Positions 2,511 to 61,307 of a stretch of DNA of 64,000 nt are shown piece after piece. Every line of letters begins with the position of its first letter. Positions within the stretch are counted from its first letter, which is position 1. A model generated the notes under the pieces. The model had not been told where the DNA came from. It was given only the letters and a program-made list of their open reading frames with translations, and did no database searches. This DNA comes from an uncultured Muribaculaceae bacterium (GTDB lineage: Bacteria > Bacillota_I > Bacilli_A > RF39 > UBA660): the NCBI GenBank assembly GCA_964369355.1, contig CAYJEO010000002.1, positions 5-64,004 on the forward strand, written 5' to 3'. Made by a program: the position numbers and the translations under genes.

Positions 2511-3584
2511 ATGAAAAAAGTAATCGCTATAACTTTAGAAAATATAATAAGTAGTAAAAATGATTTTTGTGTAAATAATATTCCTAAGTATTTATTTAAT
2601 AAGTATAATATGAAAGTGACATTAGAAGATATTAATAAAGAAAGATATTCAGAAAAATTTAATTTAAACAGACATTTAATTATTAAAAGTATTTCAGATT
2701 TACAAGCACAAAAAATTTATAAAGAAGTTAATATAGATTTTATTAAAAATAACTATGCAAAATATTTGTTTTTTAAAATAGATACAAAAGTAATTGATTT
2801 TTTTAATAAAATAGACGGTGATATTGTTTTTATATTACCTGAGACTAATAAATCTAATATAGAGCAAGTTATAATTGAAAATTTATTTAAATCTTATTTA
2901 AAATTAAATAAAGTTAATTTTTCTAAAGTGATTTCTGCTTCTTCGATAAAAGAAAAATTAGAGTATTTAGAAAATATAAATCCAGATTTATTATTAACTT
3001 CGAATAAAGATTTAGTTTCTTCTTATAAAGGTAATAGTATGAAGTTAAATTATGAAATGATCAATAATGATTTAAATATATATCCTATATTAAATGAGAT
3101 AAAAGATATAAAAACTCATTTATATATAGATAAACTAAATGTATATAATTTAAAGTTTATTTCTATAAAACATAAGTTACTTAAAAATGATTTATATGAA
3201 ACTATTAATTATGAAAAAATAAATAAAAATATTTCTAAAATAAAAAGACCTATTATATATGTAAGTAATACATTATCTAATTTAGATAAATCTACATTAA
3301 TTGTTAATTCTAAACAACCTGTATATTTTTTTAAAGAAGAGTATTTAAAAAATACTACTGAAGGTCAAGTAAAATATGATATTAAAACTTTATTAGAAAA
3401 TCGTTTTAGTGTTGTTACTTTAGAAAATGAATATGTATTTGATTTAGCAGCTAAATTAAATATTCCTATTGTTCCAATAGAAACAAATAATAATACAATT
3501 CTATATGATTCTGTTAATAAATTAGATAAAATAGAGTTAAAAGAAGAGTATGAGAAAGTTAAAAATAAAAATAAGAGCATTTAA
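2511..3584 (+). CDS. Hypothetical protein; the C-terminal half resembles a lysophospholipid acyltransferase (PlsC/LPLAT) fold with degenerate catalytic motifs
   Basis: YVSNTLSNLD sits where LPLATs have NHxSxxD, with His replaced by Thr. LNIPIVPIE matches the LPLAT P(I/V)(I/V)P(I/V) block. N-terminal KVIAITLENI sits where HAD enzymes have DxDxT. Strong SD ggaggg. Family calls are tentative. Confidence 0.6.
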   Translation: MKKVIAITLENIISSKNDFCVNNIPKYLFNKYNMKVTLEDINKERYSEKFNLNRHLIIKSISDLQAQKIYKEVNIDFIKNNYAKYLFFKIDTKVIDFFNKIDGDIVFILPETNKSNIEQVIIENLFKSYLKLNKVNFSKVISASSIKEKLEYLENINPDLLLTSNKDLVSSYKGNSMKLNYEMINNDLNIYPILNEIKDIKTHLYIDKLNVYNLKFISIKHKLLKNDLYETINYEKINKNISKIKRPIIYVSNTLSNLDKSTLIVNSKQPVYFFKEEYLKNTTEGQVKYDIKTLLENRFSVVTLENEYVFDLAAKLNIPIVPIETNNNTILYDSVNKLDKIELKEEYEKVKNKNKSI

Positions 3585-3603
3585 GTGATTAAATGTTTTT
3601 TTA
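3578..3603 (+). terminator. Intrinsic terminator after the 2511-3584 gene
   Basis: catttaa/ttaaatg forms a 7-bp stem with a gtga loop and a T8 tract. The hairpin spans the stop codon. Confidence 0.6.
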
Positions 3604-3717
3604 TATCTAAATATAATTTTAATTTTTTTCGACAATTTCCTTATAAAATATTGAAAATATTGACCTTTTATGTTATTCTTATATAAGTAGTAGAATAGCC
3701 AAGAAAGAGGTTTGAGT

Positions 3718-6700
3718 ATGGAAAAATATAGATTATCTAAACCACAGATGAATATTTGGAACATGGATTTAACAAATCCTAATAGCCCTCTTACAAACAT
3801 TTGTGGTGAACTTATAATAGAAGAGCAAGAATTCGATTATGAATTACTAAATAAAGCTGTAAATCATGTTATAAGAATGAATGATGGATTACGAATTAAA
3901 CTTACAGAAACTGCTGATGGCGTTCAACAATATTTTGAAGAGTATAAGGAATCCAATATCGAATTTTTAGATTTTTCAATGAAAACAGACAAAGAAATAG
4001 AATTGTTTAGAAAAAATAAAGCAACTTCTAAATTACCAGATGGCGAATTGATTGAGTTTAAATTAATACAATATGGCACAAAAAAAGCAAGTGTATTTTT
4101 ATTAGCGAATCATATAGTAATAGATGCTTATTCAGTGGCTTTGTTAAGTGAGTTAATTTTGAATAATTATGAAAAATTAAAAAATAACGAAGAACTTGAT
4201 TTTGAAACTGGGAGTTCTTATAAAGTATTGCTTGAAAGAGAACAAAAATATTTTGAAAGTTCTAATTATCAAGAAGATAAAATTTTTTTTGATAATGAAT
4301 TTAAAGAAGAACCTAAAGTTGTGTCTGTTACGCACAAGCAAACTGATAATATTTCAGCTGCTAGAATTGATAAACTATTAACACAGGAAGAAACTCAAAA
4401 GTTAAAAGATTTTTGTGTTAAAAATGAAATTTTTGAGGCAGTATTCTTTGATACTTTAATATTTACTTATTTAAATAGAATTTCTGGAGAAGAAGAAATT
4501 ACTATTGGGTCACCTGTTATGAATAGGAAAGGACCTAAAGAAAGAAAAACACTTGGGATGTTTGTAAGCACTAATCATTTGAAAGTAGACATAGAAAAAG
4601 AAGATAGTTTTAGAACCTTATCAAAGAAAGTATCGAGCAAAAAGTTTGCTATGTTCAAAAGGCAAGCGTATCCTTTTATGGATCTTCAAAATGATTTGTA
4701 TGAAAAATTTGGATATTCTGGAAAATTATTTGATGTTGCAGTTTCTTATCAAAATGCAAAAATAACAGGTGCAAAAGAAAATAGTAATAGTCATGCTGAT
4801 TGGTATTTTTCAGAATCGCTGAATAACTCGTTCATGCTAAGTATTGATGATAGAAGTGATTCCAATGAATTAAGATTGAGTTTTGACTATCAAACATCAA
4901 TTTTGTCAAAGGATGATGTTAATAATATTATCGATAGACTTGGTTCTATGATGGATCAAATCATTGAAAATCCAGATATAAAATTAACTGAAATAGAAAT
5001 ATTAAGCGAAAAAGATAAGGAAATATATAATAATTACAATAATTCGCCATATCAAGAAATAGATAAGTCAGTTATTGAAATTTTTGAAGAGGAAGTTGAA
5101 AAGAATCCAAATAATATTGCATTAGAATTTGAAAATAAAAGTTTTACATATAAGCAATTAAACATGTTAGCTAATGAACTGGCTAATTACTTATTAACTC
5201 AGAACTTAAGTGAAAATGAGATAATTCCTATTGTTGGTAATAGGAGTCATTATACTATAATATCTCTACTAGCATTGAGAAAAATAAATAAAGCATATTT
5301 CATAATTGATGAAACTCAATATCCATTAGAACGAATAAATTATTTATTAGATGAAGTGAAAGCAGATAAAATTTTGACATTTGGAACATCATATAAAAAA
5401 GAAAATGTTGAAGCAATTGATATTAGAAATAGTAAAGAAAATGCAACCAGTGAATGGTATAACAATTTAAATATACCTACACATGCAGAGGATTCATTTG
5501 CTGCCATCCATACTTCTGGTTCTACAGGCAATCCCAAAGTAGCAGTTGTTAGTGATTCAGGCATCGTAAATATGGCAAAAAATAATGATTATTTATTAGA
5601 TACTAGTGATACTTCTATAAGTTTAATTACAATGTCATTTGATGCATTTCTAGTTGATACATTTTTGCCGTTACTAAATGGAAAAAAATTGTTATTAACT
5701 AATAATGAAGAAATTAATGATATAAATGCTATAGAAAATATGTTGGATAAAGAAAATTCAGTATATTTAACACTTACACCTACTAAACTAAAAATGCTTT
5801 TAAGCATGAGTGAAAATGAATCATGGAATAAAGTAAATAACATGGTTCTTGGTGGTGAAAAAATAGATGCGTCACTATTATCTTTAATTGAAGAAAAATG
5901 TGGCGACTTAAATTTATATAATTTATATGGTCCTACTGAAACAACCGTATTTAATAGTATGAAAAAAGTTGAAAATGGGGAAACGACAATAGGCCATCCA
6001 ACAAAGAATTTTAAGAATTATATAAAAGATAAAAATAATAATATTTTACCTCCTAATGTGCTTGGAGAAATTCATGTCTCTGGAACAGGTGTTGCAAAAG
6101 GGTATTATGGACGTGAAGAATTAACTAATGAAAAATTTTATGTTGATGATAATACGAATTTGAGAACTTATAAAACAGGGGATTTTGGTTATATTAATGA
6201 AAAAAATGAAATGGTTTTTATAGGAAGAATGGATAGCCAAATAAAAATTAATGGACTTAGAATAGAAATAGAAGAAATTGAAAGTGTTTTAAATAAATTT
6301 CCAGGCATTAAATTATCCGCTGTTGATGTACAAAAGACAAAAGAGGAAGGTTTTTTAGTTGCCTTTTATGAAGGTACTCCAGATTCTTCTGTTGAAGGTG
6401 ATTTTGCTAAACTTCTACAAAAACATTTAGAAATTTATTTACCTGCTTATATGGTGCCTCAAAGTTTTGTGAAACTTGATTCAATACCTAAAACTACATC
6501 AGGAAAAATCGATAGAAAAAAACTACCTAAAATTTCTATTAGTGACATATTGAAAGATAATTATACAGCACCAGAAACTATATTAGAGCGTAAAATTTGC
6601 AATATTTGGGAAGAAATATTAAAAGTTGCACCAATCGGTGTAGAAAATACATTTTCGTCGCTAGGAGGAAACTCTAAGTTATTGATAAATATGATTTTAA

Positions 6701-7905
6701 AAATAGAAAGAGAATTATCTGTTTCTTGTAAAACGAGCGAACTTCCAAAAAACCCTACTATAAAAGATATTGCTCAACTAATTGAAAAAGAAAAAAACTT
6801 TAATGATATCAATATTGAAAGTTACAATATTGATAGTATCTCAATAGGTGAAAAACAGAGTGATAAAGATATTTTGTTAACAGGAGCTGGAGGATATTTA
6901 GGTTCTCATATGTTGAAAAATATAATGGATACGACAGATAAAAATGTGTACTGCCTTGTGAGAAATCCAGAAAAATTTATCAAGACATTGAATTTTTATT
7001 TTGATGATTGTAATGAATTTTCAAATAGAGTATTCATTGTAAATGGTGATATCTCAAAAGAAAATTTAGGACTTAATGAATATGAATATTCAGAGTTAGC
7101 TAAGAGAGTTAGCGTGGTTATAAATAGTGCTGCAAATGTTAGTCATTTTTCTACTTTAGATGAAGCGAAACGTGATAATGTAGATGGTGTTTATAATACA
7201 GCGAAATTTGCTTTAGAAAATGGTTCTAAGTATGAACAAATGTCAACAATTACAATTTCTGGAATAGGGGTATCAAATCAAAAAATTGAAAATTTTGAAT
7301 TCAAAGAAAATAATTTAGATATAGGTCAAGACTATTCTCATGATAATTACATGCTTAGTAAATTTAAATCTGAAGAATTATTACATAAATTCAGAGAAAA
7401 AGGTCTAGATGCAAATATATACAGACTGGGTTATGTTAATAATCGAAGTTATGACAATAAATTTCAAATAAATGATGACACAAGTGCATTTAAAATGATA
7501 GTGGATACTATAAGAGAATTTGGTATTGTTCCTGAGTCAGCTGTGAACGTAAAAATCCAACATGGTCCTGTTGATAAATTGGCGGAAGCAATTGTAACTT
7601 TAATTAAAGATAAAGATTCTAATCATACCTATCATATGTACGATGAACGCATTGAAGATTTCTTTAGTTATTTAGATAGTCGAGGTGTAGATTATAAAAT
7701 AATTAATGACGAAGAATTTCGAAAAGTAGCAGAAGAAAAATTAAAAGATAGTCTTAGTTTAGAACACTCAATAGCTTATAAGTATCTAGAAAATTTCCTT
7801 AAAAATCCAACTCAAAATACTATTAGTAATAGGCAGACACAGGAAAAATTAAAAGAGTTAGGTTTTGACTACTCAAAGGGGTATCAAAATGGTGTATCTA
7901 TTTGA
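3718..7905 (+). CDS. Single-module nonribosomal peptide synthetase, domain order C-A-T-R (terminal thioester reductase)
   Basis: C domain: NHIVIDAYS, a variant of HHxxxDG. A domain: FTYKQLN (A1), HTSGSTGNPK (A3), FDAF (A4), NLYGPTE (A5), GEIHVSGTGVAKGY (A6), YKTGD (A7), GRMDSQIKINGLRIEIEEIE (A8), LPAYMVP (A9), SGKIDRK (A10). T domain: LGGNS. R domain: LTGAGGYLG Rossmann motif plus YMLSK (YxxxK). ATG 3718 follows SD agaggt; TTG 3712 is an alternative start. Confidence 0.9.
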   Translation: MEKYRLSKPQMNIWNMDLTNPNSPLTNICGELIIEEQEFDYELLNKAVNHVIRMNDGLRIKLTETADGVQQYFEEYKESNIEFLDFSMKTDKEIELFRKNKATSKLPDGELIEFKLIQYGTKKASVFLLANHIVIDAYSVALLSELILNNYEKLKNNEELDFETGSSYKVLLEREQKYFESSNYQEDKIFFDNEFKEEPKVVSVTHKQTDNISAARIDKLLTQEETQKLKDFCVKNEIFEAVFFDTLIFTYLNRISGEEEITIGSPVMNRKGPKERKTLGMFVSTNHLKVDIEKEDSFRTLSKKVSSKKFAMFKRQAYPFMDLQNDLYEKFGYSGKLFDVAVSYQNAKITGAKENSNSHADWYFSESLNNSFMLSIDDRSDSNELRLSFDYQTSILSKDDVNNIIDRLGSMMDQIIENPDIKLTEIEILSEKDKEIYNNYNNSPYQEIDKSVIEIFEEEVEKNPNNIALEFENKSFTYKQLNMLANELANYLLTQNLSENEIIPIVGNRSHYTIISLLALRKINKAYFIIDETQYPLERINYLLDEVKADKILTFGTSYKKENVEAIDIRNSKENATSEWYNNLNIPTHAEDSFAAIHTSGSTGNPKVAVVSDSGIVNMAKNNDYLLDTSDTSISLITMSFDAFLVDTFLPLLNGKKLLLTNNEEINDINAIENMLDKENSVYLTLTPTKLKMLLSMSENESWNKVNNMVLGGEKIDASLLSLIEEKCGDLNLYNLYGPTETTVFNSMKKVENGETTIGHPTKNFKNYIKDKNNNILPPNVLGEIHVSGTGVAKGYYGREELTNEKFYVDDNTNLRTYKTGDFGYINEKNEMVFIGRMDSQIKINGLRIEIEEIESVLNKFPGIKLSAVDVQKTKEEGFLVAFYEGTPDSSVEGDFAKLLQKHLEIYLPAYMVPQSFVKLDSIPKTTSGKIDRKKLPKISISDILKDNYTAPETILERKICNIWEEILKVAPIGVENTFSSLGGNSKLLINMILKIERELSVSCKTSELPKNPTIKDIAQLIEKEKNFNDINIESYNIDSISIGEKQSDKDILLTGAGGYLGSHMLKNIMDTTDKNVYCLVRNPEKFIKTLNFYFDDCNEFSNRVFIVNGDISKENLGLNEYEYSELAKRVSVVINSAANVSHFSTLDEAKRDNVDGVYNTAKFALENGSKYEQMSTITISGIGVSNQKIENFEFKENNLDIGQDYSHDNYMLSKFKSEELLHKFREKGLDANIYRLGYVNNRSYDNKFQINDDTSAFKMIVDTIREFGIVPESAVNVKIQHGPVDKLAEAIVTLIKDKDSNHTYHMYDERIEDFFSYLDSRGVDYKIINDEEFRKVAEEKLKDSLSLEHSIAYKYLENFLKNPTQNTISNRQTQEKLKELGFDYSKGYQNGVSI

Positions 7906-8515
7906 AGTAAAAAAAAAATATGAGCTAGAGAGCATTGCAAAAAAAGCACTTTCAATGCCAGTTGAAAGGTATTATAAATTTTTAAATTATAAGAATTATG
8001 AAGATAAACTTAATTGTGTAATAGCATACCTACTTTTAGAAAATCATCTTTCCAAAAGTAAATCTGAAGTAAATTTAATTAAGTTGGATTTTAATAAATT
8101 TGGTAAGCCAATAATTGAAAAATTAAATTTCAATATCAGCCATTCAGATAAAATTATTGGTGTTGCTGTTGATGAGATAAATGAGATTGGATTAGATATA
8201 GAACCAATTTCAAATTTCGATTCAGTGATGATAAACTATATGTTTGATGAACAAGATACTGAAAAATATAAAAAAGAAATTTCTAATAACGTTTTTGTTA
8301 GTAAAGTTTGGTCAATGAAAGAGGCATATCTTAAATTAAAAGGATATGGACTATCTGCAAACATGTCTAATGTAAAATTTCAGTATGAATACGATAAGAT
8401 TTTAATTAATGACATTTATATTCAAAGTTTTAAATATAACAATAATTGGATATCTATCGCATCGAAAAATATTGAAGAAAAAATTATTATAGTAGAAGAA
8501 AAAGATATTTTATAA
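7889..8515 (+). CDS. Sfp-type 4'-phosphopantetheinyl transferase
   Basis: Motifs FNISHSD, GLDIE and WSMKEAYLKLKG. ATG 7889 lies 7 nt after aaagggg and overlaps the NRPS stop by 17 nt. Confidence 0.8.
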   Translation: MVYLFEVKKKYELESIAKKALSMPVERYYKFLNYKNYEDKLNCVIAYLLLENHLSKSKSEVNLIKLDFNKFGKPIIEKLNFNISHSDKIIGVAVDEINEIGLDIEPISNFDSVMINYMFDEQDTEKYKKEISNNVFVSKVWSMKEAYLKLKGYGLSANMSNVKFQYEYDKILINDIYIQSFKYNNNWISIASKNIEEKIIIVEEKDIL

Positions 8516-8533
8516 TTACTAAAGGAGGATAAT

Positions 8534-10804
8534 ATGCCTAATTTACATTTTCCACTAGCAGGATTAATAATAATGTTAATGCTGATGCTAGTTTATTTTA
8601 CAAAAAATAGAGTTGATACATTCGAAACAAAAATATATTCTTATATAGTTTTTACTAGTTTTTTGATTTCGTTATTCACCACGGCTATTATATTTTTAAA
8701 TTATACATTACCAGATAGTTACCTAATTATATTGTTCAATCAAATAGATTTTATAGTATTATGGTTTTGGGTTTGGTTACTGTTTGTATATACTTATAAT
8801 ATCTCTTTTGAAGTTAAGGAAAAATATAATAATTGGGCTATTAAATCCACCTTTTATATAAATGTAGCCTTTGTTTTATGTTTTTGGTTTCTACCTGTTG
8901 AGTTAATAAATGAAAATAATGTAATGACTGCAACAGGACTTGGTGTCGATATAGCGTATGCCGGAGCAGCTTTCTATCTTATTATTTCTATTATTTGTTT
9001 GATAATGAATAAAAGTAAAATAGCAAACACAAAGTATTTTCCTGTTTATATGTTCCTTATTACCAGTATAATAAACTTGTATTTAAGAGTAGCAGATCCA
9101 ACTATTGTATTTATTTCATTCGGAATAGCTTTTACAACATTGCTAATGTACCACACTATAGAAAATCCAGATGTTAAAATGATAGAGCAAATTGCACAAG
9201 CAAAAGAATATGCAGAAAAAGCAAATAGAGCAAAAACAGACTTCTTATCAAGTATGTCACATGAAATAAGAACACCTTTAAATGCTATTATAGGGTTTTC
9301 TGAGTGTATTAAAGCAGAAGATGATACAGAAGAAATGAAAAGAGATGCTGATGATATTATAATGGCTTCTCAAAACTTACTTGAAATAGTAAATGGTATA
9401 TTAGATATATCTAAAATAGAAGCTAATAAAATGGAAATAGTTAATCAAAATTATCATTTAGAACATCATTTAAATAATATATCTAAATTAGTAATTCCAA
9501 GAATTGGAGAAAAACCAATTCAATTAAAAACACATTTTTCAGAAGATTTACCAGCAACTATGTACGGTGATATAGGAAAAATTAAACAAATAATTACTAA
9601 TATATTAACTAATGCAGTTAAATATACAGAATCAGGCTATGTAATATTTTCAGTTACTTGTATTAATGAAGGTGATAATTCATCATTAGTTATCACTATA
9701 GAAGATACAGGTAGAGGAATTAGAACTGAAAAAATACAAACATTGTTTACAAAGTTTAATAGATTAGACGAAGATAAAAATGGTACGATTGAAGGTACTG
9801 GATTAGGACTTGCTATTACTAAATCATTAGTAGAAATGCTAGGTGGTAAAATAGTAGTATCATCTAATTATGGTGAAGGTACTAAATTTAGTGTTTATTT
9901 ACAACAAAAAATAGTAAAATTACATGAAGGTGCAGAAGAAAAAAACATGAGAGAAATGTCTCATGATGTAGATTTTTCTGGAATGAAAGTATTATTAGTA
10001 GATGATAATAAATTAAACTTAAAAGTAGCAGACAAACTAATAAAAAAATATAATATCGAAACTGAATCAATTGACTCAGGTTTAGAATGTATAGATAAAA
10101 TAAAATTAGGATTTAATTATGATTTAATTTTATTAGATGATATGATGCCAATATTAAGTGGACAAGAAACTTTAGTTCATTTAAAAGAAATAAGTAACTT
10201 CAATATACCAGTAGTAGCATTAACAGCAAATGCTATATCTGGAATGAAAGAAATGTATATCGAAAAAGGTTTTGATGATTATTTAGCAAAACCTATAGAT
10301 AAAGAAGAATTATTAAAAGTATTTTATAGATTCTTAACACCAAGTCATTTAAATAAAACTGTTGAGGTATTAAGTTTAAATAAAGAAAAACAAGAAAAAA
10401 TAAAACAAGACTCTGTAGAACAATATTTAAGTAAAAATGATAATTACCTAAATGTTAATTATTTAGAAGATAATAATGTTAATTTAGAATATTCTTTAAG
10501 TTTATTAGGAGATATGGAAATGTATAATGAAACATTAACTGACTTCTTAGAAACTATAGAAGAAAAAAAATCAAACATTACTAAATTTAAAAATGAACTT
10601 GATATGAATAATTATGCAATATTAGTACATTCATTAAAAAGTGATTCTAAATATTTAGGATTACTAGATTTAGCAGATGTTGCATATGAACATGAATTAA
10701 AAAGTAAAGAAAACGATACAGAATTTGTAATAAATAACTTTGATAGTTTAATTAAAAAACTAGAAATAACTATTGAAATGTTAAATAAATATATAAAAAA
10801 GTAA
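8534..10804 (+). CDS. Hybrid sensor histidine kinase (multi-TM sensor, HisKA, HATPase_c, REC, HPt)
   Basis: About 6-7 N-terminal hydrophobic helices. H-box [10 protein letters not shown]-box NAVKYT, G-boxes DTGRGI and GTGLGL. REC domain VLLVDDN...LLDDMMP...ALTANA...AKP. C-terminal HPt [14 protein letters not shown] aaaggagg lies 18 nt after the PPTase stop with no terminator between them. Confidence 0.85.
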
Positions 10805-10807
10805 TTT

Positions 10808-10832
10808 AAAAGCAAATAAATTGCTTTTTTTA
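10808..10832 (+). terminator. Intrinsic terminator after the kinase gene
   Basis: aaaagcaa/ttgctttt stem with a 5-nt loop and a T-tract. Confidence 0.6.
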
Positions 10833-10878
10833 TTTACTATAATTTTAGATACTGTTATAATTTAAATAGGTGATATAT

Positions 10879-16717: not shown

Positions 16718-17944
16718 ATGTATATGCAAAATTTAAATTTAGAACAGCAAATAAATATTATAATGTATGAATTACCACAACAAAAACTAAGTGAAAAAAA
16801 TAAATCTCTTTTGCTTGGTAATAAAGAATTATTACTAAAAGTTATTAAATTAAACTTAAACGTAGTTAATTATCTAGAAGATAGTAAAATTTTAAACGAT
16901 ATAGATGTTATAATTACTATGCTAGAAGCAGAAACACTAAAAAATGAATCGATGCCAAAAAATATCTTTTTTAAAGAAATAATAAAATATGTGAAAAATC
17001 CGAATCATAAAATTAGCTTCAAATTAAAACGAAATATGAGTTTTTATCCTGAAATTCTTTTAAAATCAAGATATAATAATTTACATAAATTATATCCTAA
17101 TTTACTAAAAGAAGTAAAAGAACAATTATTGATAGATAGAAGAATGGAAACTACTAAAAATAGTTTTAATATGACAGAAGAAGAAATTGACGATTTAGTA
17201 AATTTATTTAAAGCATCAAAATTATCATCAACAAATTTTATAAAACAAAATGAAATAGCTAGTAAATTAACTAATCTTCAAACTTTTCTTGAAAGTTATT
17301 CTCCTAAAAAAGAAAATTTATATATAATGCAAGAAGAAGAAAAAAGAAAAAAACTAATTTTGGTTGCTAATAAAATAGTAAATAATCAATTAACAATAAA
17401 ACAATATTGTGATAATGAGGCAACAACATATCCATTGTCATATTTATTACATTATATAGAAGAAGATAGCATTTTAAGAGCTAAAGTAATTCAAAAAATA
17501 TATGAAGCTAAATTAAATAATGAAATAGATACAAAAGATATAATTAAACTACTTACAAGAAGAAAAGCTAATTTAGATTTTAAATATAATTATGATATAA
17601 ACAATGTCAAAACTGAAATTTTAAATTTTAGAAAATCTTTTCAATTAATTGGTGAAAGTAGTAAAAATTTTGATATATTTAAAAGTACAATAAATACTTT
17701 AGAATTATATCTAAAAACATATAATAGAGAAGAAAGTATTAATGAAAAACATGTATATCAAAAATATGATAAACAAACGAATAATATAATAAGAATAAAT
17801 ATTTTAGAACATCACTATGATGAAGCGTTTAATAACTTAAATGAAAACAACAGTATAATTTGTAAAAAAACAGTAACAGATGAAGCTTTAAGAATAGCAA
17901 TAAATGAATTTGTTAAAGATATAAAACAGAAGGAAATGAAGTAG
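16718..17944 (+). CDS. Hypothetical protein, tandem paralog A (DUF4116-like N-terminal repeat plus a conserved C-terminal module)
   Basis: Long ORF. The C-terminal 250 aa aligns with the next gene (LILVANKIVNNQLTIKQYCDNEATTYPLSYL..., AKLNNEIDTKDIIKLLTRRK). An alternative start at ATG 16724 is better spaced from gaggg. Confidence 0.75.
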   Translation: MYMQNLNLEQQINIIMYELPQQKLSEKNKSLLLGNKELLLKVIKLNLNVVNYLEDSKILNDIDVIITMLEAETLKNESMPKNIFFKEIIKYVKNPNHKISFKLKRNMSFYPEILLKSRYNNLHKLYPNLLKEVKEQLLIDRRMETTKNSFNMTEEEIDDLVNLFKASKLSSTNFIKQNEIASKLTNLQTFLESYSPKKENLYIMQEEEKRKKLILVANKIVNNQLTIKQYCDNEATTYPLSYLLHYIEEDSILRAKVIQKIYEAKLNNEIDTKDIIKLLTRRKANLDFKYNYDINNVKTEILNFRKSFQLIGESSKNFDIFKSTINTLELYLKTYNREESINEKHVYQKYDKQTNNIIRINILEHHYDEAFNNLNENNSIICKKTVTDEALRIAINEFVKDIKQKEMK

Positions 17945-17945
17945 T

Positions 17946-19541
17946 ATGAAAAGAGAATATTATATTGACGAATGTGGTCAATTATCAGAACAATCAGTAG
18001 TAGAATTGAAAAAAAATAAAAAAGCATTAATAGAACTAGTTAGAATGGATCATAATTTATTGAAATATTTTTGTGAAGAACCATTTGTTAGTGAAAAAGA
18101 AATATTGATAGCAGCTTTAAAAAATCAATCTAGTAAAATTAAATCAATAGAAACAAAAAAAGCATATAATTTTTTAATTTTCGCATTAGAAGCAGATAAT
18201 GCAGATGTAATAGAAGATGTATTTTTTAAAATTGAATTTGCAACTAACTCTTTAGAAAAAGTTTTAGAACATAAATATTTTAAATACTTTTTTGAAAAAC
18301 AAGAAATAACTAAAACCATAAATGAATTAATGAAAGAAAGAGAATTATTTGTTTTAAGTTTTAAAGAAAGCTTATCAAAAAAAGAACTAAAGTACATTTT
18401 TTCAAGTAAAGAAAATACACTATATATATCACTTAACAGAAACAATTTTAAAAAGTATATAGTTCAATCAAAATATAAAAATGATATAGATGTAGTATTA
18501 GCATTATTAAAAAATCAAATGAATAATATAGAAATTATTAAAGAATTAAATTTATATAAAAAAATATATGCAGCATTCAAAGGAAGCAATATAGATTTTG
18601 CAAATCTTTCTTCTGAAGAAAGACAATATGCAATACGTATAGTCGATAGATTAGAAAAAGAACCATTTGATTTATTAACTAAAATATATCCAGATGTTTT
18701 TAGTAAGATAAAATCTTCTTTAGAAGTAAAAACAAAAAATGAAGAAGATAACAAAATTAAGAAAACAGATATATATCAAAAATTAATAGCTTCTAAGTTA
18801 TCATTAATAAACTTTTCTGTTCAAAATAATTATAATGAAAAAGAAATATCACTAGTTAAAGAATTTGGGCAAAATAATAAAATCAAAGAAAACTTAGAAT
18901 ATGAAATTCAAGAAAAACAAAAAAGGGAAAAATTAATTTTAGTTGCTAAAAAAATAGCAAACGGTCAATTAACTATAAGACAATATTGTGATAATGAAGC
19001 AACGACATATCCATTGTCATATTTGATACATTATTTAGAAGATAATAAAATGTTAAAAGAAGAAATAGTAAAACTTTTATTTACTGCTAAATTAAATAAT
19101 GAAATAGATACAAAAGATATAATTAAATTACTTACAAGAAGAAAAGGAAATTTAGATTTTAAATTTTATTATGATTTAAACAATGTTAAATTAGAATTAT
19201 TAAAATTAAGACCGATGTTACACTCTTTAGATAATAATATTGAGTTTTATAAAATTTTAAATAGCATAATCAATTCATTAAGTGCATATAATGAATTGTA
19301 TAATAGAGAAGAATTAATTAATCAAAAATTTGTGTATCAAAAATATGATTCAAAAACAAATAATATAATCAAAGTAGAAGTATTAGACCATCATTATGAT
19401 AATGCTTCAAGTAATTTAATTACTAATAATAGTATAATTTGTAGGAAAACAGTTACAGATGAAGCTATAAAAGTAGCAATAACTGAATTTATGAAAGAAA
19501 ATTTAGATTTAAAAACTAAAACAATTGCAAAAAATGATTAA
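17946..19541 (+). CDS. Hypothetical protein, tandem paralog B
   Basis: Starts 1 nt after the paralog A stop. It shares the same C-terminal module and has a longer N-terminal region with DUF4116-like segments (ALIELVRMDHNLLKYFCEEPFVSEKEILIAALKNQ). Confidence 0.75.
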   Translation: MKREYYIDECGQLSEQSVVELKKNKKALIELVRMDHNLLKYFCEEPFVSEKEILIAALKNQSSKIKSIETKKAYNFLIFALEADNADVIEDVFFKIEFATNSLEKVLEHKYFKYFFEKQEITKTINELMKERELFVLSFKESLSKKELKYIFSSKENTLYISLNRNNFKKYIVQSKYKNDIDVVLALLKNQMNNIEIIKELNLYKKIYAAFKGSNIDFANLSSEERQYAIRIVDRLEKEPFDLLTKIYPDVFSKIKSSLEVKTKNEEDNKIKKTDIYQKLIASKLSLINFSVQNNYNEKEISLVKEFGQNNKIKENLEYEIQEKQKREKLILVAKKIANGQLTIRQYCDNEATTYPLSYLIHYLEDNKMLKEEIVKLLFTAKLNNEIDTKDIIKLLTRRKGNLDFKFYYDLNNVKLELLKLRPMLHSLDNNIEFYKILNSIINSLSAYNELYNREELINQKFVYQKYDSKTNNIIKVEVLDHHYDNASSNLITNNSIICRKTVTDEAIKVAITEFMKENLDLKTKTIAKND

Positions 19542-19850: not shown

Positions 19851-21110
19851 ATGAAAAAGAATTTTATTTTTTTAATTTTGTTATTTATGTTATTTCCAAC
19901 TCAAATATTTGCTGATGTTGTAGTAACACCTAATAAAGAACAAGTAGAGTTAAATGATATATTAACTGTAGATGTAGATTTAACAAAATTAGATAACGGC
20001 TTTAGTAGTGGGGACTTAATTTTAACATTTGATGATAGTTTTTTAGAATATATAGATTTAGAAGTGTCACAAAGTATTGATAAGGCAAATGAAATTACGA
20101 TAATTCCTGGAATGGGCACTTTAACTATTAATTATAAAAAAGAAACTAGTAACATTACTAATGGAGATTTTTTAACTTTAACTTTTAGAGTAATAAATAC
20201 TGCAGAAGAAGATAGAACAACTTGGATTAATTTAGAAACAGCTTCGTTAAAAGATAACGACCAAACTGATATTTCTTTTGATACAGTATCTACTAAGATA
20301 GTAGTTTTAGGAAGAGAAATAGGTTATTTAACTTCATTGTCAGTAGATAATTTTGAATTGAATCCAGTATTTGATCAAACTGTTTATGGATATGATTTAG
20401 GTTCTACTCAAGGTAGTGAAATTGTAATTAATGCAGAGGTTATGGAAGGTTATGAAATAATTGGGACTGGGTTAAAAGTATTAGAATTCGGAGTAAATAT
20501 GTTTACTATTGAAGTTAAAAACAGTGAAAATGTTATTGAAAATACTTACTCAGTTAAAATATATAGGGAAGAAATTTCAACAGAACATTTAAAACTAATT
20601 ACTCTTGAAATAGAAGGTTATGAAATAACTTTTGATCCGGATACTTATGAGTATACAATCGATGTAGAAGAAGACTTGAAAGAGTTAACGGTAATAGCAA
20701 CTGCACAAGAAGGTTTAACTATCCAAGGTGCGACAACTTATACTATTACTGATAAAATAACTGAAATAAATGTAATAGTGTCAAATGAACTGCAAGATTT
20801 AACTTATGTAGTAAAATTAAATAGAATTAAAGATACTGATGTAGATGTAGATACTTCTACAACACCACCAATTGAAACTAAACCAGAAGAAACAAAAGAA
20901 TCTTCTAATTCATTAATATATATTATCATAGCGATATTATTTATTATATCTATAGTAGTTATTGTAATTATAAAAAAGAAAAAACAAATAATAGGTATAA
21001 AGGAAAATAATGAATTAAAAGAAGAAATAGCAATCCAATTAGATAATAGAGAAGAAATAGAAGAAGTTAATTTAGAAGAATCTCAAAGTGATACAGAAAA
21101 TAAAGAATAA
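19851..21110 (+). CDS. Membrane-anchored surface protein with a cohesin-like domain and two cadherin-like beta-sandwich repeats
   Basis: Signal peptide. Cohesin-like segment LTVDVDLTKL...GDLILTFDDSFLEYIDLE. Two LxSLSV/LEIEGYE...P.F.P.TY.Y repeats. A Thr/Pro linker and a C-terminal TM helix followed by KKKK. Confidence 0.6.
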   Translation: MKKNFIFLILLFMLFPTQIFADVVVTPNKEQVELNDILTVDVDLTKLDNGFSSGDLILTFDDSFLEYIDLEVSQSIDKANEITIIPGMGTLTINYKKETSNITNGDFLTLTFRVINTAEEDRTTWINLETASLKDNDQTDISFDTVSTKIVVLGREIGYLTSLSVDNFELNPVFDQTVYGYDLGSTQGSEIVINAEVMEGYEIIGTGLKVLEFGVNMFTIEVKNSENVIENTYSVKIYREEISTEHLKLITLEIEGYEITFDPDTYEYTIDVEEDLKELTVIATAQEGLTIQGATTYTITDKITEINVIVSNELQDLTYVVKLNRIKDTDVDVDTSTTPPIETKPEETKESSNSLIYIIIAILFIISIVVIVIIKKKKQIIGIKENNELKEEIAIQLDNREEIEEVNLEESQSDTENKE

Positions 21111-21616: not shown

Positions 21617-22477
21617 TTATTTTTTTAAACTATAACCATTATATGTAGTAACTTTATTTTTACCATTTCTTTTATTTTCATATAATAACTTATCAGTTAT
21701 TAGTAATGTATCATTTAAATCAGTAAAATTTACATTGTCATTATCTAAATTATTAGTTTTAAATTTATTATAACGTTGAATATCTTCATAAGAAGAATAT
21801 GAGGCTATACCAGCACTTAAAGATAAGCGATTACTTGGTTCAACACAAACTTTACTTTCATCATATAAAACTGTTATGAATTTATTTATATCTTCCATAA
21901 TAATTTTAACTCTTTTTTCAATTGAAACAACATCTTCTGTTTTAAAAAACAATTGAAATTCATCTCCACCAGAACGAACAGCAAAGTCATGATTAGCACG
22001 CATTGTATTTTCTTTGAAAATAGTAGCTATTTTTTTAAGTACAAGATCGCCTACATGATGTCCAAAAGTATCGTTTATATTTTTAAAATTATCTAAGTCA
22101 CAATCTACTAAAGTATAAATGCAACCTCTGTTTGCTATTAATTTATTATACATACCACGTCTATTATATAAATTAGTTAAAATATCAGTATTAGATATTT
22201 CTACTTGTTTAGTTAATTTAGTTGAAATATGTAAATTTTCATTTGCCAAAAACATTACAGTTTCTTTTAATTCTTTTGCTGAATTAACCAATGTTTTAAT
22301 ATGGTTATTAGCAGAATTGTTTTTTTCTTTTAAATGTATATTAGAATCTTTTAATAAAGCATTTTCACTAGCTAAATTAACATTTTTATTAGTTAAACAT
22401 GAATTAATATTTTTTAATTCATCGTACTCTTTTTTTAATATTTCAAATTCTAGTTGTAATTTTTCTAAATCATTCAT
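21617..22477 (-). CDS. Diguanylate cyclase (coiled-coil N-terminus plus GGDEF domain)
   Basis: DLDNFKNINDTFGHHVGD and RSGGDEF motifs. No RxxD I-site lies 5 residues upstream of GGDEF. Confidence 0.85.
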   Translation of the reverse strand: MNDLEKLQLEFEILKKEYDELKNINSCLTNKNVNLASENALLKDSNIHLKEKNNSANNHIKTLVNSAKELKETVMFLANENLHISTKLTKQVEISNTDILTNLYNRRGMYNKLIANRGCIYTLVDCDLDNFKNINDTFGHHVGDLVLKKIATIFKENTMRANHDFAVRSGGDEFQLFFKTEDVVSIEKRVKIIMEDINKFITVLYDESKVCVEPSNRLSLSAGIASYSSYEDIQRYNKFKTNNLDNDNVNFTDLNDTLLITDKLLYENKRNGKNKVTTYNGYSLKK

Positions 22478-23178: not shown

Positions 23179-25128
23179 ATGAATTTTGAAATAAACGAAA
23201 AAAACATATTAAAATTTACATTACCATGTATAATGACAATGATATTTACATCAATATTTGTCATGTCAGATGGAATAATAGTGTCAAATTATATCAATGA
23301 AACAGCACTAGCCGCTATTAATATAGTAATGCCTGTAACGTCTTTGTTCTTAGCAGTAGGATTAATGTTTGGAGCAGGAAGTAGTGCTATATGTAGCCAA
23401 TTATTAGGAGAAGGTAAAATAGATAAAGCCAAACAAACTTTATCGTCAGTATTAGTAGTATCTTTTATAATAGGTGTTATTTTTACTATATTAACACAAT
23501 TAAACATGGATAGTATTCTAAATTTCTTAGGAGCTAGTGAAGATACAATAGGGTATGCAAGTAGTTATTTAAGAGTACTATCAATATTTTTATCAATAAT
23601 AATGATTAAAACAATATTCCAAAGTATTATGGTTGTATCAGGAAAAGCATTTTTATTTTTTAAAGCAATGATAGTATCAGGAATACTTAAAGTAATATTA
23701 AGTTATTTATTTGTAGCAGTATTAAATTTAGGAACAACAGGTTTAGCTTTTGCTGGTGTTTTTGGATATTTAATACCAGTAATAGTATCAATAATAGCAT
23801 TATCAAAAAATAATGAACAAGGTTTATCATTAGTTAAACCAAAATTTGATAAAAAAATAATACTTGACTCTTGTTATAATGGTTCAAGTGAAATGGTAAC
23901 AAATATGTCATCTGCAGTAACAACATTTTTATTTAATTCAGCAATGTTAAAACTAGTAGGAGACTCAGGAGTTTCAGCAGTTACTGTAATTTTATATATT
24001 CAATTTTTATTAGGATCTATATTTATGGGATATGCTATAGGAATAGCTCCTTTAATAGGATTTAATTATGGTAAAAAAGATAGTAATAATTTACATAAAA
24101 TATTTAAATCAAGTTTAAAAATATTAAGCATTATGTCAATAGTTAGCTTTAGTATAGCGTTTATATTTTCTAGCAACTTAACCTCTTTCTTTGCAGAAAA
24201 AGGAAGCGAAATATATGAATTATCACATAATGGATTAAATATATTTGCCTTTGGATTTTTATTTATGGGATTTAATATATTTGCATCAGGATTATTTACA
24301 GCATACTCAAATGGTAAAGTATCTGCATTTATATCAGCGATAAGAACATTAGGTTTAATATCTACATCAATTATATTATTACCTAATATATTCGGGATAA
24401 ATGGTGTATGGATGGCTGTACCAGTAGCAGAGTTCATAACTTTATTTATATCGTTATACTTATTTAATAAATATAAAGATATTTATATGTATTCAGGTAA
24501 AAAAGTATTAGAAGAAAAAACATATGAAACTTCTACTTTAATTACCATTAATAGAATGTTTGGTTCAGGGGGAAGAGAAGTAGGAAAGCGTTTAGCAGAA
24601 CAATTAAACTTTGCTTACTATGATAAAGATATTATAAATGATATTTTAAATAACGATGGTTTAAGTGATGAATATTTAGAACAATATAACGATATTAATT
24701 TTAGTTCGAATTTCAAATTCCAGTTTGCTACATCATTTGTAAAATATAAAGATAGTCCTTCAGCAGATGTATTTGAAAAACAAGCTGAAGTAATAAAAAA
24801 ACTATCAAATAAAGATAGTGTCTTTGTAGGAAGATGTTCAAATCATATTTTAAAAGAAAAAAATCCTTTTAAAGTATTTATATATGCTAAGGATGAAGAT
24901 TATATAATTAATAGATTATATGAAAAAAACGAAGCAGATAAAAATAAAACGGAAAAACAATTAAAAAAATTAGTAAAAAAAATAAATGATAATAGACAAA
25001 ATTATTATAAATATTATACAGGTAGTGATGTACTAGACTTAGAAAACTATGATTTAGTTATAGATATATCTAAAGTAGGATTAAAAAATGCTGTTAATAT
25101 TATAAAATTAGCAATAGAAAAGAAGTAA
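23179..25128 (+). CDS. MATE-family efflux transporter fused in frame to a cytidylate-kinase-like (Cytidylate_kin2) domain
   Basis: Residues 1-435 are a 12-TM MATE-like protein. Residues from about 455 (nt 24541 onward) read LITINRMFGSGGREVGKRLAEQLNFAYYDKDII, a P-loop-like family signature. The frame is open with no stop between the two parts. Confidence 0.75.
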   Translation: MNFEINEKNILKFTLPCIMTMIFTSIFVMSDGIIVSNYINETALAAINIVMPVTSLFLAVGLMFGAGSSAICSQLLGEGKIDKAKQTLSSVLVVSFIIGVIFTILTQLNMDSILNFLGASEDTIGYASSYLRVLSIFLSIIMIKTIFQSIMVVSGKAFLFFKAMIVSGILKVILSYLFVAVLNLGTTGLAFAGVFGYLIPVIVSIIALSKNNEQGLSLVKPKFDKKIILDSCYNGSSEMVTNMSSAVTTFLFNSAMLKLVGDSGVSAVTVILYIQFLLGSIFMGYAIGIAPLIGFNYGKKDSNNLHKIFKSSLKILSIMSIVSFSIAFIFSSNLTSFFAEKGSEIYELSHNGLNIFAFGFLFMGFNIFASGLFTAYSNGKVSAFISAIRTLGLISTSIILLPNIFGINGVWMAVPVAEFITLFISLYLFNKYKDIYMYSGKKVLEEKTYETSTLITINRMFGSGGREVGKRLAEQLNFAYYDKDIINDILNNDGLSDEYLEQYNDINFSSNFKFQFATSFVKYKDSPSADVFEKQAEVIKKLSNKDSVFVGRCSNHILKEKNPFKVFIYAKDEDYIINRLYEKNEADKNKTEKQLKKLVKKINDNRQNYYKYYTGSDVLDLENYDLVIDISKVGLKNAVNIIKLAIEKK

Positions 25129-37680: not shown

Positions 37681-38730
37681 ATGATTAAAAACAAATTAGA
37701 TTTTAAATTAGTAAATATAGCAATTATCTGTTTAATTGTATTTCTAATTTATCAAACAAGTACAGTATGGTTAGGATTTATAAATGATATTATATATATC
37801 GGATTACCATTTTTCTTTGCATTTGCAATTGCTTATGCACTATATCCATCAGTACAATTTTTAGAAAGAAAGAAATTACCTAAGGGGTTAAGTATAGCTA
37901 TAGTATTAGCATCAGTTGCTTTAATATTAGCATTAGTATTGGTATTAGTAGTGCCATTATTATTTGAACAATCTCAATCTTTATTTAATGGTATATTAAC
38001 ATTTATAACAGACTTATCAGTTAAATGGGATGTTAATTTAGGTGATTTATCAGCTACATTAGATGAGTCTTTTGATAAAATAATAGCAAGTATGAGTGAG
38101 TATGTTTCAAATGGAGCAATTTCTTTTCTAAATGCTTCATTAGCAGCTGTAACTAACTTTTTTATAGTGTTAGCAGCATCTATTTATTTTTTAATAGATA
38201 TGGATAAAATTAGAACTAGAGCTAAGAAGTTTTTCAAAAGAACGTCTTTGAAAACTTTTGAATATTTTAAAACATTAGATCATGAAATGAAACAATATTT
38301 AATTGGATTTATTAAAATATCTTTAATTTCTGTTGTTGAATATTTCTTAGTTTACCAAATTATTGGTCATCCAAATGCTTTATTAATTGGTTTCTTGGCT
38401 TTAATTGGTGGTTTAGTTCCATATTTTGGAGGTATGATTGTAAATGTAATCGCAGCAATAACTGCATCAGTAGTATCGCCACAATTACTTTTATATACAG
38501 TAATAGCATTTATTATATTAGCCCAAGTAGATGGTTATTTAATTAACCCTTTAGTATATGGTAAATCAAATAAAATTCATCCATTAGTTGGTATCGTCGC
38601 AGTATTTGCTTTCGGTTATTTAATGGGTATAGTAGGAGTTATTATTGCAATGCCTTTAGCAATAGCTATAATAGCAACTTATAGATTTTTCAAAGAAGAT
38701 ATTTTATATAAAATATCAGGTGTAAAATAA
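37681..38730 (+). CDS. AI-2E family transporter (PerM/UPF0118)
   Basis: 8-TM protein with family-typical PYFGG and INPLVYG segments. Confidence 0.75.
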   Translation: MIKNKLDFKLVNIAIICLIVFLIYQTSTVWLGFINDIIYIGLPFFFAFAIAYALYPSVQFLERKKLPKGLSIAIVLASVALILALVLVLVVPLLFEQSQSLFNGILTFITDLSVKWDVNLGDLSATLDESFDKIIASMSEYVSNGAISFLNASLAAVTNFFIVLAASIYFLIDMDKIRTRAKKFFKRTSLKTFEYFKTLDHEMKQYLIGFIKISLISVVEYFLVYQIIGHPNALLIGFLALIGGLVPYFGGMIVNVIAAITASVVSPQLLLYTVIAFIILAQVDGYLINPLVYGKSNKIHPLVGIVAVFAFGYLMGIVGVIIAMPLAIAIIATYRFFKEDILYKISGVK

Positions 38731-40740: not shown

Positions 40741-40939
40741 ATAATTATTGTTTAAGAGAAGTATTTATAAAATATTTAAAGAGAGCTTGTGGTTGGTGTA
40801 AACAAGTAATAGTTTATAAAGAAAGACACTTATACTAAAGATAATTCGCATATCTGCGTTAAAGATTTAAGTGTATAGCAAAGTCTATAAATTAAGGTGG
40901 TATCGCGGTAATTCGTCCTTAAATTTATAGGCTTTTTTT
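40741..40939 (+). promoter_or_regulatory. T-box riboswitch leader with terminator/antiterminator
   Basis: AGAGAG and GGTGTAA Stem I elements (40789-40800). Specifier region gaaaGACACtt (40821-40831). T-box sequence aattaaGGTGGTAtCGCGg (40890-40908). Terminator ctataaattaagg...ccttaaatttatag plus gcttttttt (40885-40939). Confidence 0.85.
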
Positions 40940-40959: not shown

Positions 40960-42237
40960 ATGATACAAAAACCAAAAGGAACTTATGATTTAAATGGAAT
41001 AAACGGTAAAAAAGTTTTATATTTACAAGGTATATTAGAAGCTTTAATGCAAAAATATAATTTTGAATATATTAGAACGCCTTTATTTGAAGCATCTTCA
41101 TTATTTAAAAGAGGAGTAGGAGATACAACGGATATTGTTTCTAAAGAAACTTATGATTTTATTGATAGAGGTAATAGAGAGATGACTCTACGCCCAGAAG
41201 GAACTGCAGGAGCTGTTAGATCATTTATAGAAAATAAAATACATGGGTTACCAAATATGCCTTATAAATGTTGGTATTTTGGTCCTATGTATAGATATGA
41301 AAGACCACAATCAGGACGTTTTAGAGAGTTTTATCAATTCGGTGTAGAAGCTTTTGGATCTAATGATCCTATGTTAGATGCAGAAATTATTAGTATTCCT
41401 GTAAATTTTTATAAAATTTTAGGATTAAAAGGATTAAAAGTAAATATAAATACATTAGGTGATGAAGAATCTAGATTAGCATATAAAAATGCTTTATTAG
41501 CTTATTTTAAACCTTATTTAAATGAAATGTGTGATGATTGTAAATCTAGATATGAAAAAAATCCATTAAGATTATTAGATTGTAAAATAGACTCTAAAAA
41601 AGAATTTTTTAAAGATGTACCTAAAATGTCAGATTATTTAAATGAAGAATCTAAAAAACATTTTGAAGATGTTTGTTCATATTTAGATATTTTAGATATT
41701 GAATACGTTGTTAATACTTCTTTAGTTAGAGGATTAGATTACTATACACATACAGTATTTGAAGTAGAAGCTTCTGTTGAAGGTTTTGGAGCACAAAATG
41801 TATTATGCGGTGGTGGAAGATATAATAAACTAGTAGAAATGCTTGATGGACCTAAAACTGCAGGTGTTGGTTTTGCTTTAGGTTTTGAAAGATTATTAAC
41901 TGCACTAGAATTTGAAAATATTGATTTAATTAAAGAAATAAGCATTGATGCTTATATAATACCTATGAATAATGATTACAAAGCGTATAGTTTTAGTTTA
42001 TTAAATACTTTAAGACTAAATGGATTTAATGTTGATATTGATTATATGGATAGAAATATAAAATCTAATTTTAAACAAGCTGATAGATTAAATAGTAAAA
42101 TGGTTATTTTAGTAGGTGAAGAAGAAGTTAGTACTAATATTTTAACTATTAAAAATAATAAAACTTTAGAAGAATATAAAGTAAGTACTGAAAATTTAAT
42201 TGAATTTTTAGATACTAATATAAGTGAGGTAGAATAA
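40960..42237 (+). CDS. hisS: Histidine--tRNA ligase
   Basis: Class II motifs (MTLRPEGT, FRYERPQSGRFREFYQ, GGGRY) and an anticodon-binding C-terminus. Confidence 0.93.
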   Translation: MIQKPKGTYDLNGINGKKVLYLQGILEALMQKYNFEYIRTPLFEASSLFKRGVGDTTDIVSKETYDFIDRGNREMTLRPEGTAGAVRSFIENKIHGLPNMPYKCWYFGPMYRYERPQSGRFREFYQFGVEAFGSNDPMLDAEIISIPVNFYKILGLKGLKVNINTLGDEESRLAYKNALLAYFKPYLNEMCDDCKSRYEKNPLRLLDCKIDSKKEFFKDVPKMSDYLNEESKKHFEDVCSYLDILDIEYVVNTSLVRGLDYYTHTVFEVEASVEGFGAQNVLCGGGRYNKLVEMLDGPKTAGVGFALGFERLLTALEFENIDLIKEISIDAYIIPMNNDYKAYSFSLLNTLRLNGFNVDIDYMDRNIKSNFKQADRLNSKMVILVGEEEVSTNILTIKNNKTLEEYKVSTENLIEFLDTNISEVE

Positions 42238-61294: not shown

Positions 61295-61307
61295 GAAGTA
61301 GGAGAAT

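Follow-up and report, generated by a model that had tools for sequence, protein, structure and literature searches.

A window of 64,000 nucleotides (nt), the whole stretch of DNA analyzed here (contig CAYJEO010000002.1 of assembly GCA_964369355.1), carries a compact biosynthetic locus built around a one-module non-ribosomal peptide synthetase (NRPS). An earlier sequence-only reading had described this locus as an NRPS gene overlapped by the gene of a 4'-phosphopantetheinyl transferase (PPTase) and had placed its end at position 8515. This limit has to be moved downstream, since a co-oriented hybrid sensor histidine kinase gene at 8534-10804 is part of the same conserved cassette.

Genes and features of the three-gene unit

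The unit and its boundaries comprise the following features, in which C, A, T and R stand for the condensation, adenylation, thiolation (carrier) and thioester-reductase domains.

3573-3607, +: terminator-like hairpin (12-bp stem and U-run; -8.7 kcal/mol, z -3.1) ending the upstream 357-residue gene; 5' boundary
3660-3687, +: putative promoter-like site TTGACC-16 nt-TATAAG, read by eye
3718-7905, +: NRPS gene, 1395 residues, C-A-T-R order (Pfam, NCBIfam, motifs, orthologue alignment)
3721-5022, +: C domain, residues 2-435, at the extreme N-terminus (Pfam, E 9e-63)
5083-6507, +: A domain, residues 456-930 (Pfam AMP-binding 456-797 and AMP-binding_C 853-930)
6589-6783, +: T domain, residues 958-1022 (Pfam PP-binding), with Ser986 in LGGNS
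6871-7800, +: R domain, residues 1052-1361 (NCBIfam TIGR01746), with TGAGGYLG and Y1211/K1215
7889-8515, +: Sfp-type PPTase gene, 208 residues (Pfam ACPS, motifs, orthologue identity)
8534-10804, +: hybrid sensor histidine kinase gene, 756 residues (Pfam, NCBIfam), with a strong ribosome-binding site, AAAGGAGGA
8534-9178, +: seven-helix membrane sensor, hydrophobic residues 1-215, without a Pfam family and ending in an invariant ENPD
9230-10711, +: kinase core and phosphorelay, comprising HisKA (His243), HATPase_c, receiver (Asp535) and Hpt (His698 in HSLKS) (Pfam, alignment)
10808-10835, +: weak terminator-like hairpin (8-bp stem and U7; -5.9 kcal/mol, z -1.6) after the kinase gene; 3' boundary

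The NRPS open reading frame (ORF) covers 4.19 kb of the forward strand when counted from its first TTG (3712-7905). Its likely start is ATG 3718, located 7 nt after an AAGAGG ribosome-binding site, which gives the protein of 1395 residues. The C, A, T and R domains are colinear and score 213, 184, 43.5 and 127 bits against curated Pfam cutoffs of 30.6, 29.9, 20.8 and 20.1, the R domain being matched by NAD_binding_4 at residues 1054-1292 (E 7e-37). The A-domain cores SGSTGNPK, NLYGPTE, YKTGD, GRMDSQIKINGLRIE and SGKIDRK are all found. In the C3 motif, which reads N-H-IVI-D-A, His132 and Asp136 are invariant in all four orthologues, and the first histidine is replaced by Asn or Ser across them. 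The same four proteins share Ser986 of the carrier motif LGGNS, the site of phosphopantetheine attachment, and the GxxGxxG and YxxxK signatures of the R domain (TGAGGYLG and Y1211-x3-K1215 in the window). With the domains in order and the motifs intact, the single C-A-T-R protein proposed earlier is confirmed; the carrier serine and the R-domain motifs, on which that assignment depended, are both present, and the attempt to refute it failed. By its domain order and intact motifs this protein is a terminal-reductase-type NRPS, and product formation can be predicted. Genetic code 11 fits the window, all 35 large ORFs being intact (stops: TAA 24, TAG 8, TGA 3). The base composition of the NRPS gene (27.5% GC, to be compared with 24.3% for other coding sequence) gives no clear signal of horizontal transfer.

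The PPTase gene starts at ATG 7889, 8 nt after AAAGGGG, and the NRPS gene stops at TGA 7903-7905, so that the two genes overlap over the 17 nt from 7889 to 7905. The Sfp-type assignment and the overlap, both already proposed, hold: the protein matches Pfam ACPS (33.5 bits for a cutoff of 25), carries the motifs GLDIE and WSMKEAYLK, and is 33-40% identical to the PPTases encoded after three orthologous NRPS genes.

The kinase gene begins, in the same orientation, 18 nt past the PPTase stop codon, and this gap measures 14 and 34 nt in the relatives. Its product is a hybrid histidine kinase that keeps the H-box SHEIRTPLN (His243), the N-box Asn and the receiver Asp535; the Hpt match stays below the Pfam cutoff (21.6 vs 24.6 bits), and the HSLKS motif is present. 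According to Pfam the membrane sensor is not a member of HisKA_7TM (PF16927) or of other named membrane sensor families: the region has no Pfam match at E<=5 in the window protein, and 42 family members likewise lack one at E<=0.01. An AlphaFold model of the sensor shows seven membrane helices, of which 4 and 5 are connected by a loop that contains a beta-hairpin (predicted local distance difference test 79, predicted template-modeling score 0.75). When this model was submitted to Foldseek, only generic seven-helix bundles of the G-protein-coupled receptor type were returned (TM-score 0.5-0.64), and these matches were taken as a likeness of topology, not as homology to such receptors.

A full HMMER scan collected 626 cluster representatives of this sensor family, nearly all of them proteins of about 600 residues with the order sensor-HisKA-HATPase-REC. 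The family (window 8534-9178, proteins P0203-P0351) is without a Pfam model, and its invariant ENPD motif lies at the junction of the last membrane helix with the kinase. Of the 42 sampled members, about half have the phospho-acceptor histidine replaced, by Gln in 17 and by Glu, Lys, Asp or Asn in others, which suggests a pseudo-kinase subfamily still bearing a receiver domain.

No terminator-like site separates the three genes. With the hairpins that bracket them, this absence makes 3718-10804 look like a single operon of three genes and 7.1 kb. A promoter consensus scan was uninformative in such AT-rich DNA (74 sites for 81 expected). The upstream 357-residue gene (2511-3584) was considered as a further member of the unit and rejected, as it has no family match and was not found in the other loci. 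Downstream of the cassette lies a tryptophan-tRNA ligase gene.

Relatives of the synthetase and their neighborhoods

The window NRPS belongs to a very rare family. In a set of 5.8 billion clustered proteins only three relatives exceed 35% identity, namely P0002 (54%), P0003 (47%) and P0004 (45%). Each of them is a singleton and comes from a metagenome-assembled genome, and the close family thus amounts to four proteins. A scan of the genome collection with the single NRPS sequence returned nothing, an alignment-based scan returned only the three known loci, and a scan of JGI metagenomes found no close relative.

This distribution bears on the possibility that the protein is a reductase of primary metabolism, of the alpha-aminoadipate or carboxylic-acid type, or else a decaying relic. 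Partial NCBIfam matches to TIGR03443 and to carboxylic acid reductase are in line with such a reading, but the scores are far below the respective cutoffs (220 vs 1030 bits for alpha-aminoadipate reductase, 88 vs 1300 for carboxylic acid reductase). In addition, Lys2 and the carboxylic acid reductases are A-T-R enzymes devoid of the C domain that the window protein possesses, a family of four proteins does not have the distribution of a primary enzyme, and a relic is contradicted by the intact ORF and the conservation of all catalytic motifs. Taken together, the domain and distribution data effectively refute this explanation, which must be regarded as extremely improbable; the sequence-only reading had likewise held the protein to be an NRPS.

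The loci of these relatives are organized as follows.

L001 (locus of P0004): kinase - NRPS - PPTase - kinase, the upstream kinase being a second paralogue
L002: NRPS - PPTase - kinase, the contig ending in the kinase N-terminus
L003: NRPS - PPTase, the contig ending inside the PPTase

The order NRPS-PPTase-kinase is found in both relatives in which the downstream gene is visible, and adjacency to a kinase holds in three of three close loci, the window included. The kinases are 46-52% identical to that of the window, membrane sensor included, and the NRPSs 45-54%. The spacing between the NRPS and PPTase genes is -17 nt in the window, -1 in L001, -4 in L002 and +9 in L003. Since the gene order is kept while the flanks differ, the three genes appear to travel together, as a cassette that would move as one within a rare lineage.

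Several observations on these neighborhoods can be added. In L001, a tyrosine recombinase and a C39-family peptidase (16927-18916) directly follow the cassette, which may therefore lie on a mobile or bacteriocin-related island. The contigs L004-L006, identical to L002, L003 and L001 respectively, are titled "uncultured Muribaculaceae" or "uncultured Bacteroidales"; given the 27-28% GC of the homologous contigs and a cassette shared with a Mycoplasmatota-like genome, these titles were judged unreliable, and the contigs are probably mis-binned or mis-named. The locus L014 shows partial synteny with the window (NUDIX-NUDIX upstream) and has at the place of the NRPS a fatty-acyl-CoA-ligase-like gene, followed by a 311-residue, apparently truncated homologue of the window kinase sensor and by a leucine-rich-repeat protein (2784-5584). 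Its stand-alone AMP-binding enzyme was examined as a possible decayed NRPS and discarded as such, being fatty-acyl-CoA-ligase-like instead.

A more distant set is made of one-module C-A-T-R proteins of 26-34% identity, found in seven contexts.

L010 (P0025, 526 member sequences): acyl-CoA-ligase-like gene, NRPS, polytopic kinase, REC-HD-GYP regulator
L017 (P0016): NRPS, kinase, REC-HD-GYP regulator
L020 (P0029): NRPS, HisKA_7TM kinase
L012/L013 (P0038): STAS, NRPS, SpoIIE phosphatase, anti-sigma kinase
L018 (P0020): NRPS, with a stand-alone adenylation enzyme and a 76-residue carrier protein downstream
L008 and L019: no signaling neighbor

A polytopic kinase is thus encoded immediately downstream in three of the seven (L010, L017 and L020). 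The kinases of the three types are predicted to have five to eight membrane helices, and their sensor regions show no detectable similarity; a BLAST comparison of the window sensor with the HisKA_7TM sensor of L020 gave no match at E<=10, the best family match reaching E 0.16. We read this recurrent pairing of an NRPS with a kinase as a sign of functional coupling, which a receptor or a regulator of the operon would explain alike. The regions in which the C-A-T-R genes are followed by polytopic kinases are L010 7987-11117, L017 9778-12873 and L020 4758-6563, and the REC-HD-GYP regulator that comes next in two of the distant loci is a likely cyclic di-GMP phosphodiesterase.

Predicted chemistry of the product

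The A-domain specificity code was obtained by alignment to a fragment of GrsA-PheA, which reproduces the published code DAWTIAAICK. It reads DAVTVGLVFK in the window and DAENVGLVFK, DAMIIGLVFK and DAMMIGSVFK in the orthologues, three positions of the pocket varying among them. Asp235 and Lys517 are present and invariant in the four proteins. Their retention indicates that the A domain takes an alpha-amino acid, and the pocket appears hydrophobic, resembling the leucine code DAFMLGMVFK. In the distant set, P0016 and P0029 have codes close to the glycine code DILQLGLIWK, while that of P0025 (DIFQMAGIFK) is not near it. With a glycine-like code, the products of P0016 and P0029 would be N-acyl glycinal or lipids resembling N-acyl ethanolamines.

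The closest solved relative of the R domain is 6VTJ (E 1e-35), the didomain of peptidyl carrier protein and reductase of Mru_0351 from a rumen methanogen (PMC8024701), the MxaA and AusA reductases coming next. As regards the C domain, the proteins of known structure retrieved from the PDB with the single sequence included LgrA C (E 1e-14), RzmA-Cs (1.6e-11), CDA-C1 (1.3e-10) and TomB C (5.5e-8). With a family profile they included BacC of bacitracin synthetase (206 bits), TycC (178), the RzmA starter C (167), TomB (114) and CDA-C1 (105). The domain begins at residue 2 and can, by position alone, be called a starter C domain.

On these grounds the following course of synthesis can be proposed. 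The PPTase would prime the carrier at Ser986 to give the holo form, and its expression would be tied to that of the NRPS by translational coupling. The A domain would activate a hydrophobic alpha-amino acid and load it onto the carrier. The C domain, having no carrier upstream, would then transfer to the amino group an acyl unit provided in trans, for which fatty or short acyl-coenzyme A (acyl-CoA) or acyl carrier protein (ACP) thioesters of primary metabolism are the most likely donors. Finally, the R domain would release an N-acyl amino aldehyde with NAD(P)H, or the alcohol after a second reduction. That the product derives from one amino acid and is released reductively is predicted with considerable confidence. 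An N-acyl amino aldehyde or alcohol is a reasonable prediction, the N-acylation step having about an even chance of being correct.

The neighborhood of the two biosynthetic genes is poor in this respect. None of the adjacent genes encodes a carrier protein, an acyl ligase, a transporter or a tailoring enzyme, as the sequence-only reading had noted for tailoring, transporter and acyl-donor genes, and no second carrier-protein motif was detected in the whole 64 kb. Such an absence of a donor-supplying gene suits a different chemistry, in which a free amino aldehyde is made with no external donor and dimerizes to a dihydropyrazine or pyrazine, or in which the C domain gives a dipeptide aldehyde that becomes a pyrazinone. 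In the pyrazinone variant, the C domain would couple the amino acid on the carrier with the amino aldehyde after its release, or with a second loaded unit, a route that has been proposed for PvfC, AsaC and ATRed. One-module A-T-R enzymes are indeed known to yield pyrazines and pyrazinones (PMC7586950, PMC10512218), and pyrazinones have been reported as AI-3 autoinducers (PMC8895600). The best named NCBIfam match of the window PPTase is moreover AusB of the aureusimine pyrazinone pathway (E 3e-11), with a score far under the family cutoff. The known one-module pyrazine and pyrazinone enzymes, however, are without a C domain, whereas the window protein has a full-length one, whose His and Asp do not vary among the four orthologues at identities of 45-54%. 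This invariance argues that the C domain is under selection for some catalytic job. The donor genes present in trans in L010 and L018 argue in addition that the N-terminal C domain of this family really acylates. The pyrazine or pyrazinone product seems rather unlikely.

Two known systems resemble the N-acylation route. MxcG, the myxochelin NRPS, provides the only NCBIfam model that aligns with the whole window NRPS (residues 3-1338, E 1e-130), and it shares the C-A-T-R order, an N-terminal C domain with an in-trans donor, and reductive release. The window protein is nevertheless not an orthologue (437 bits against a 2300-bit cutoff), and MxcG has no linked kinase. MxcG also needs aryl-carrier and dihydroxybenzoate-activating partners; a search for partners of this type found no carrier gene in the 64-kb window. 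NpsB and TomB of the pyrrolobenzodiazepine pathways have the same one-module C-A-T-R architecture and work with a separate A-T loading protein, an arrangement present in the distant relative L018 and not in the window.

Possible role of the kinase, host lineage and other features of the window

The arrangement of the cassette suggests a function for the third gene. The co-transcribed seven-helix kinase would be tied to the product, most likely as its receptor, and would pass the signal by way of a His-Asp-His phosphorelay to a response regulator whose gene lies elsewhere, the cassette being then a self-contained pair of signal synthase and receptor. The best explanation that combines all the data is a product of a hydrophobic amino acid, N-acylated in trans and reductively released, to which the kinase is functionally coupled; it seems to us as apt to be right as wrong. 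Within it, the receptor role of the kinase is a tentative proposal. Which amino acid is used, what donates the acyl group, whether an aldehyde or an alcohol is released and whether the kinase is the receptor are all matters of inference, and we derive the signaling interpretation from gene order alone.

Several findings weigh against this explanation. The C3 motif is NHxxxDA and not HHxxxDG, the scores of the C domain with the PDB sequences leave starter and elongation types undivided, and no acyl donor gene is found in the 64-kb window. No response regulator is encoded near the cassette. The sensor family has 626 cluster representatives for an NRPS family of four proteins, from which it follows that most of its members cannot be receptors for the NRPS product, and the adjacency could reflect regulation instead of reception. 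Finally, the three close loci form one clade and count as one evolutionary event, and three of the seven distant loci have no signaling neighbor.

Another explanation is a product acting as an effector on the host or on competitors, for example a protease-reactive aldehyde, the kinase regulating the operon on an unrelated cue or being a mere passenger. Proteases bind an N-acyl aldehyde of one residue less well than a dipeptide, which counts against this proposal. On the other hand, gut NRPSs of the C-A-T-C-A-T-R type make protease-inhibiting dipeptide aldehydes (PMC10979478, PMC12327764), and the next-best database matches of the window NRPS are two-module proteins of about 2400 residues (29-33% identity). 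The hundreds of sensor-family members that are unlinked to the window NRPS, and the HtrA-like serine protease gene upstream in L010 and L017, can also be cited in favor of an effector. The presence of kinases of three unrelated polytopic sensor types directly after C-A-T-R genes is unlikely to be due to chance and speaks against a passenger, even if regulation explains it equally well. The effector proposal is possible, but falls short of being probable.

The earlier reading had drawn a comparison with NRPS clusters of gut Firmicutes. The host is a Mycoplasmatota-like low-GC gut lineage and not a classical Firmicute, and the characterized gut peptide-aldehyde NRPSs referred to are two-module enzymes (PMC10979478). 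These gut Clostridia C-A-T-C-A-T-R enzymes and AusA/AusB of Staphylococcus aureus share with the window a host-associated low-GC background, reductive release and a small operon combining an NRPS with a dedicated PPTase. They differ by their two modules and dipeptide products (PMC10979478), the window NRPS having one module and about 30% identity. The AusA model scores 539 bits on the window protein for a cutoff of 2500 and aligns with residues 412-1027 only, in agreement with the absence of a second module. Linkage to a kinase is not a described feature of these clusters.

Parallels to the proposed signaling function are found elsewhere. The CqsA/CqsS and LqsA/LqsS systems of alpha-hydroxyketone quorum sensing associate a synthase with a hybrid kinase that has a polytopic membrane sensor, and their ligand is amphipathic. 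In these systems the synthase and kinase genes are adjacent, and the sensor has six helices. Their synthase is a pyridoxal-phosphate-dependent acyl-CoA transferase, not an NRPS, and no sensor sequence similarity was detected between the window kinase and CqsS or LqsS. CqsS itself is a hybrid kinase, and the sensing of small autoinducers by transmembrane kinases is known (PMC8895600). In the Pvf system of Pseudomonas, an NRPS with one module and a terminal reductase produces diffusible autoinducers (PMC10194917, PMC10512218), for which the receptor is not known (PMC10194917). PvfC differs from the window enzyme in being an A-T-R protein without a C domain that works with PvfA, PvfB and PvfD, and the window operon includes a candidate receptor gene.

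Synthetases of the one-module C-A-T-R kind are already known, although their products and purpose are mostly unknown outside a few pathways, and the window NRPS taken alone is a further member of this kind. What is new is that an NRPS-PPTase-kinase cassette is conserved, and that it occurs in a lineage not expected to have NRPSs. A full-text literature search found no paper joining an NRPS, a thioester reductase, a histidine kinase and a signaling molecule. The cassette might represent a new kind of cell-cell signaling module, in which a one-module NRPS with its own PPTase makes an amino aldehyde or alcohol of lipid-like character, or else a pyrazinone, and a co-transcribed kinase reads this product, a generalization that we regard as doubtful. 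If it were true, wall-bearing gut bacteria resembling Mycoplasmatota would use NRPS-based autoinduction in which the receptor is genetically linked, and this may have arisen repeatedly in other lineages with different kinase sensors. A kinase acting as the receptor would provide a matched signal-receptor pair for an NRPS-derived autoinducer, the pairing that is missing for Pvf, and the repeated association of such enzymes with membrane kinases across unrelated lineages would then amount to a general rule that deserves to be mined. Should the kinase not act as the receptor, what remains is one more orphan NRPS. Being a small unit with its own PPTase, the cassette is unusually easy to express and to test.

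As to the host, the 24% GC of the window and an aspartate-tRNA ligase 72-74% identical to the enzymes of a "Mycoplasmatota bacterium" and of Candidatus Faecisoma merdavium point to a bacterium that resembles the uncultured gut Mycoplasmatota, a very AT-rich and streamlined lineage. A T-box leader ahead of hisS-aspS belongs to the same evidence. The Mur ligase, BacA and MurJ-like genes of the window indicate that it has a cell wall. A literature search for NRPSs in RF39 returned nothing.

The remainder of the window contains competence and type IV pilus genes at 52785-54794 and 59369-62072, encoding ComEC, a platform protein resembling type II secretion system F and a prepilin peptidase, and an AI-2E family transporter gene at 37681-38730; as far as tested, these bear no relation to the NRPS cassette. 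Two further genes encode a surface protein with cohesin and cadherin-like domains (19851-21110) and a GGDEF diguanylate cyclase with an unassigned N-terminus of 95 residues (21617-22477, -). At 23179-25128, a protein of 649 residues unites a flippase domain resembling MatE/MurJ with a cytidylate-kinase-like domain at its C-terminus, an unusual combination. One regulatory RNA was recognized:

40744-40923: T-box leader (Rfam 101 bits, over the gathering threshold), directly upstream of hisS

Downstream of this leader lie hisS (40960-42237) and aspS (42237-43979).

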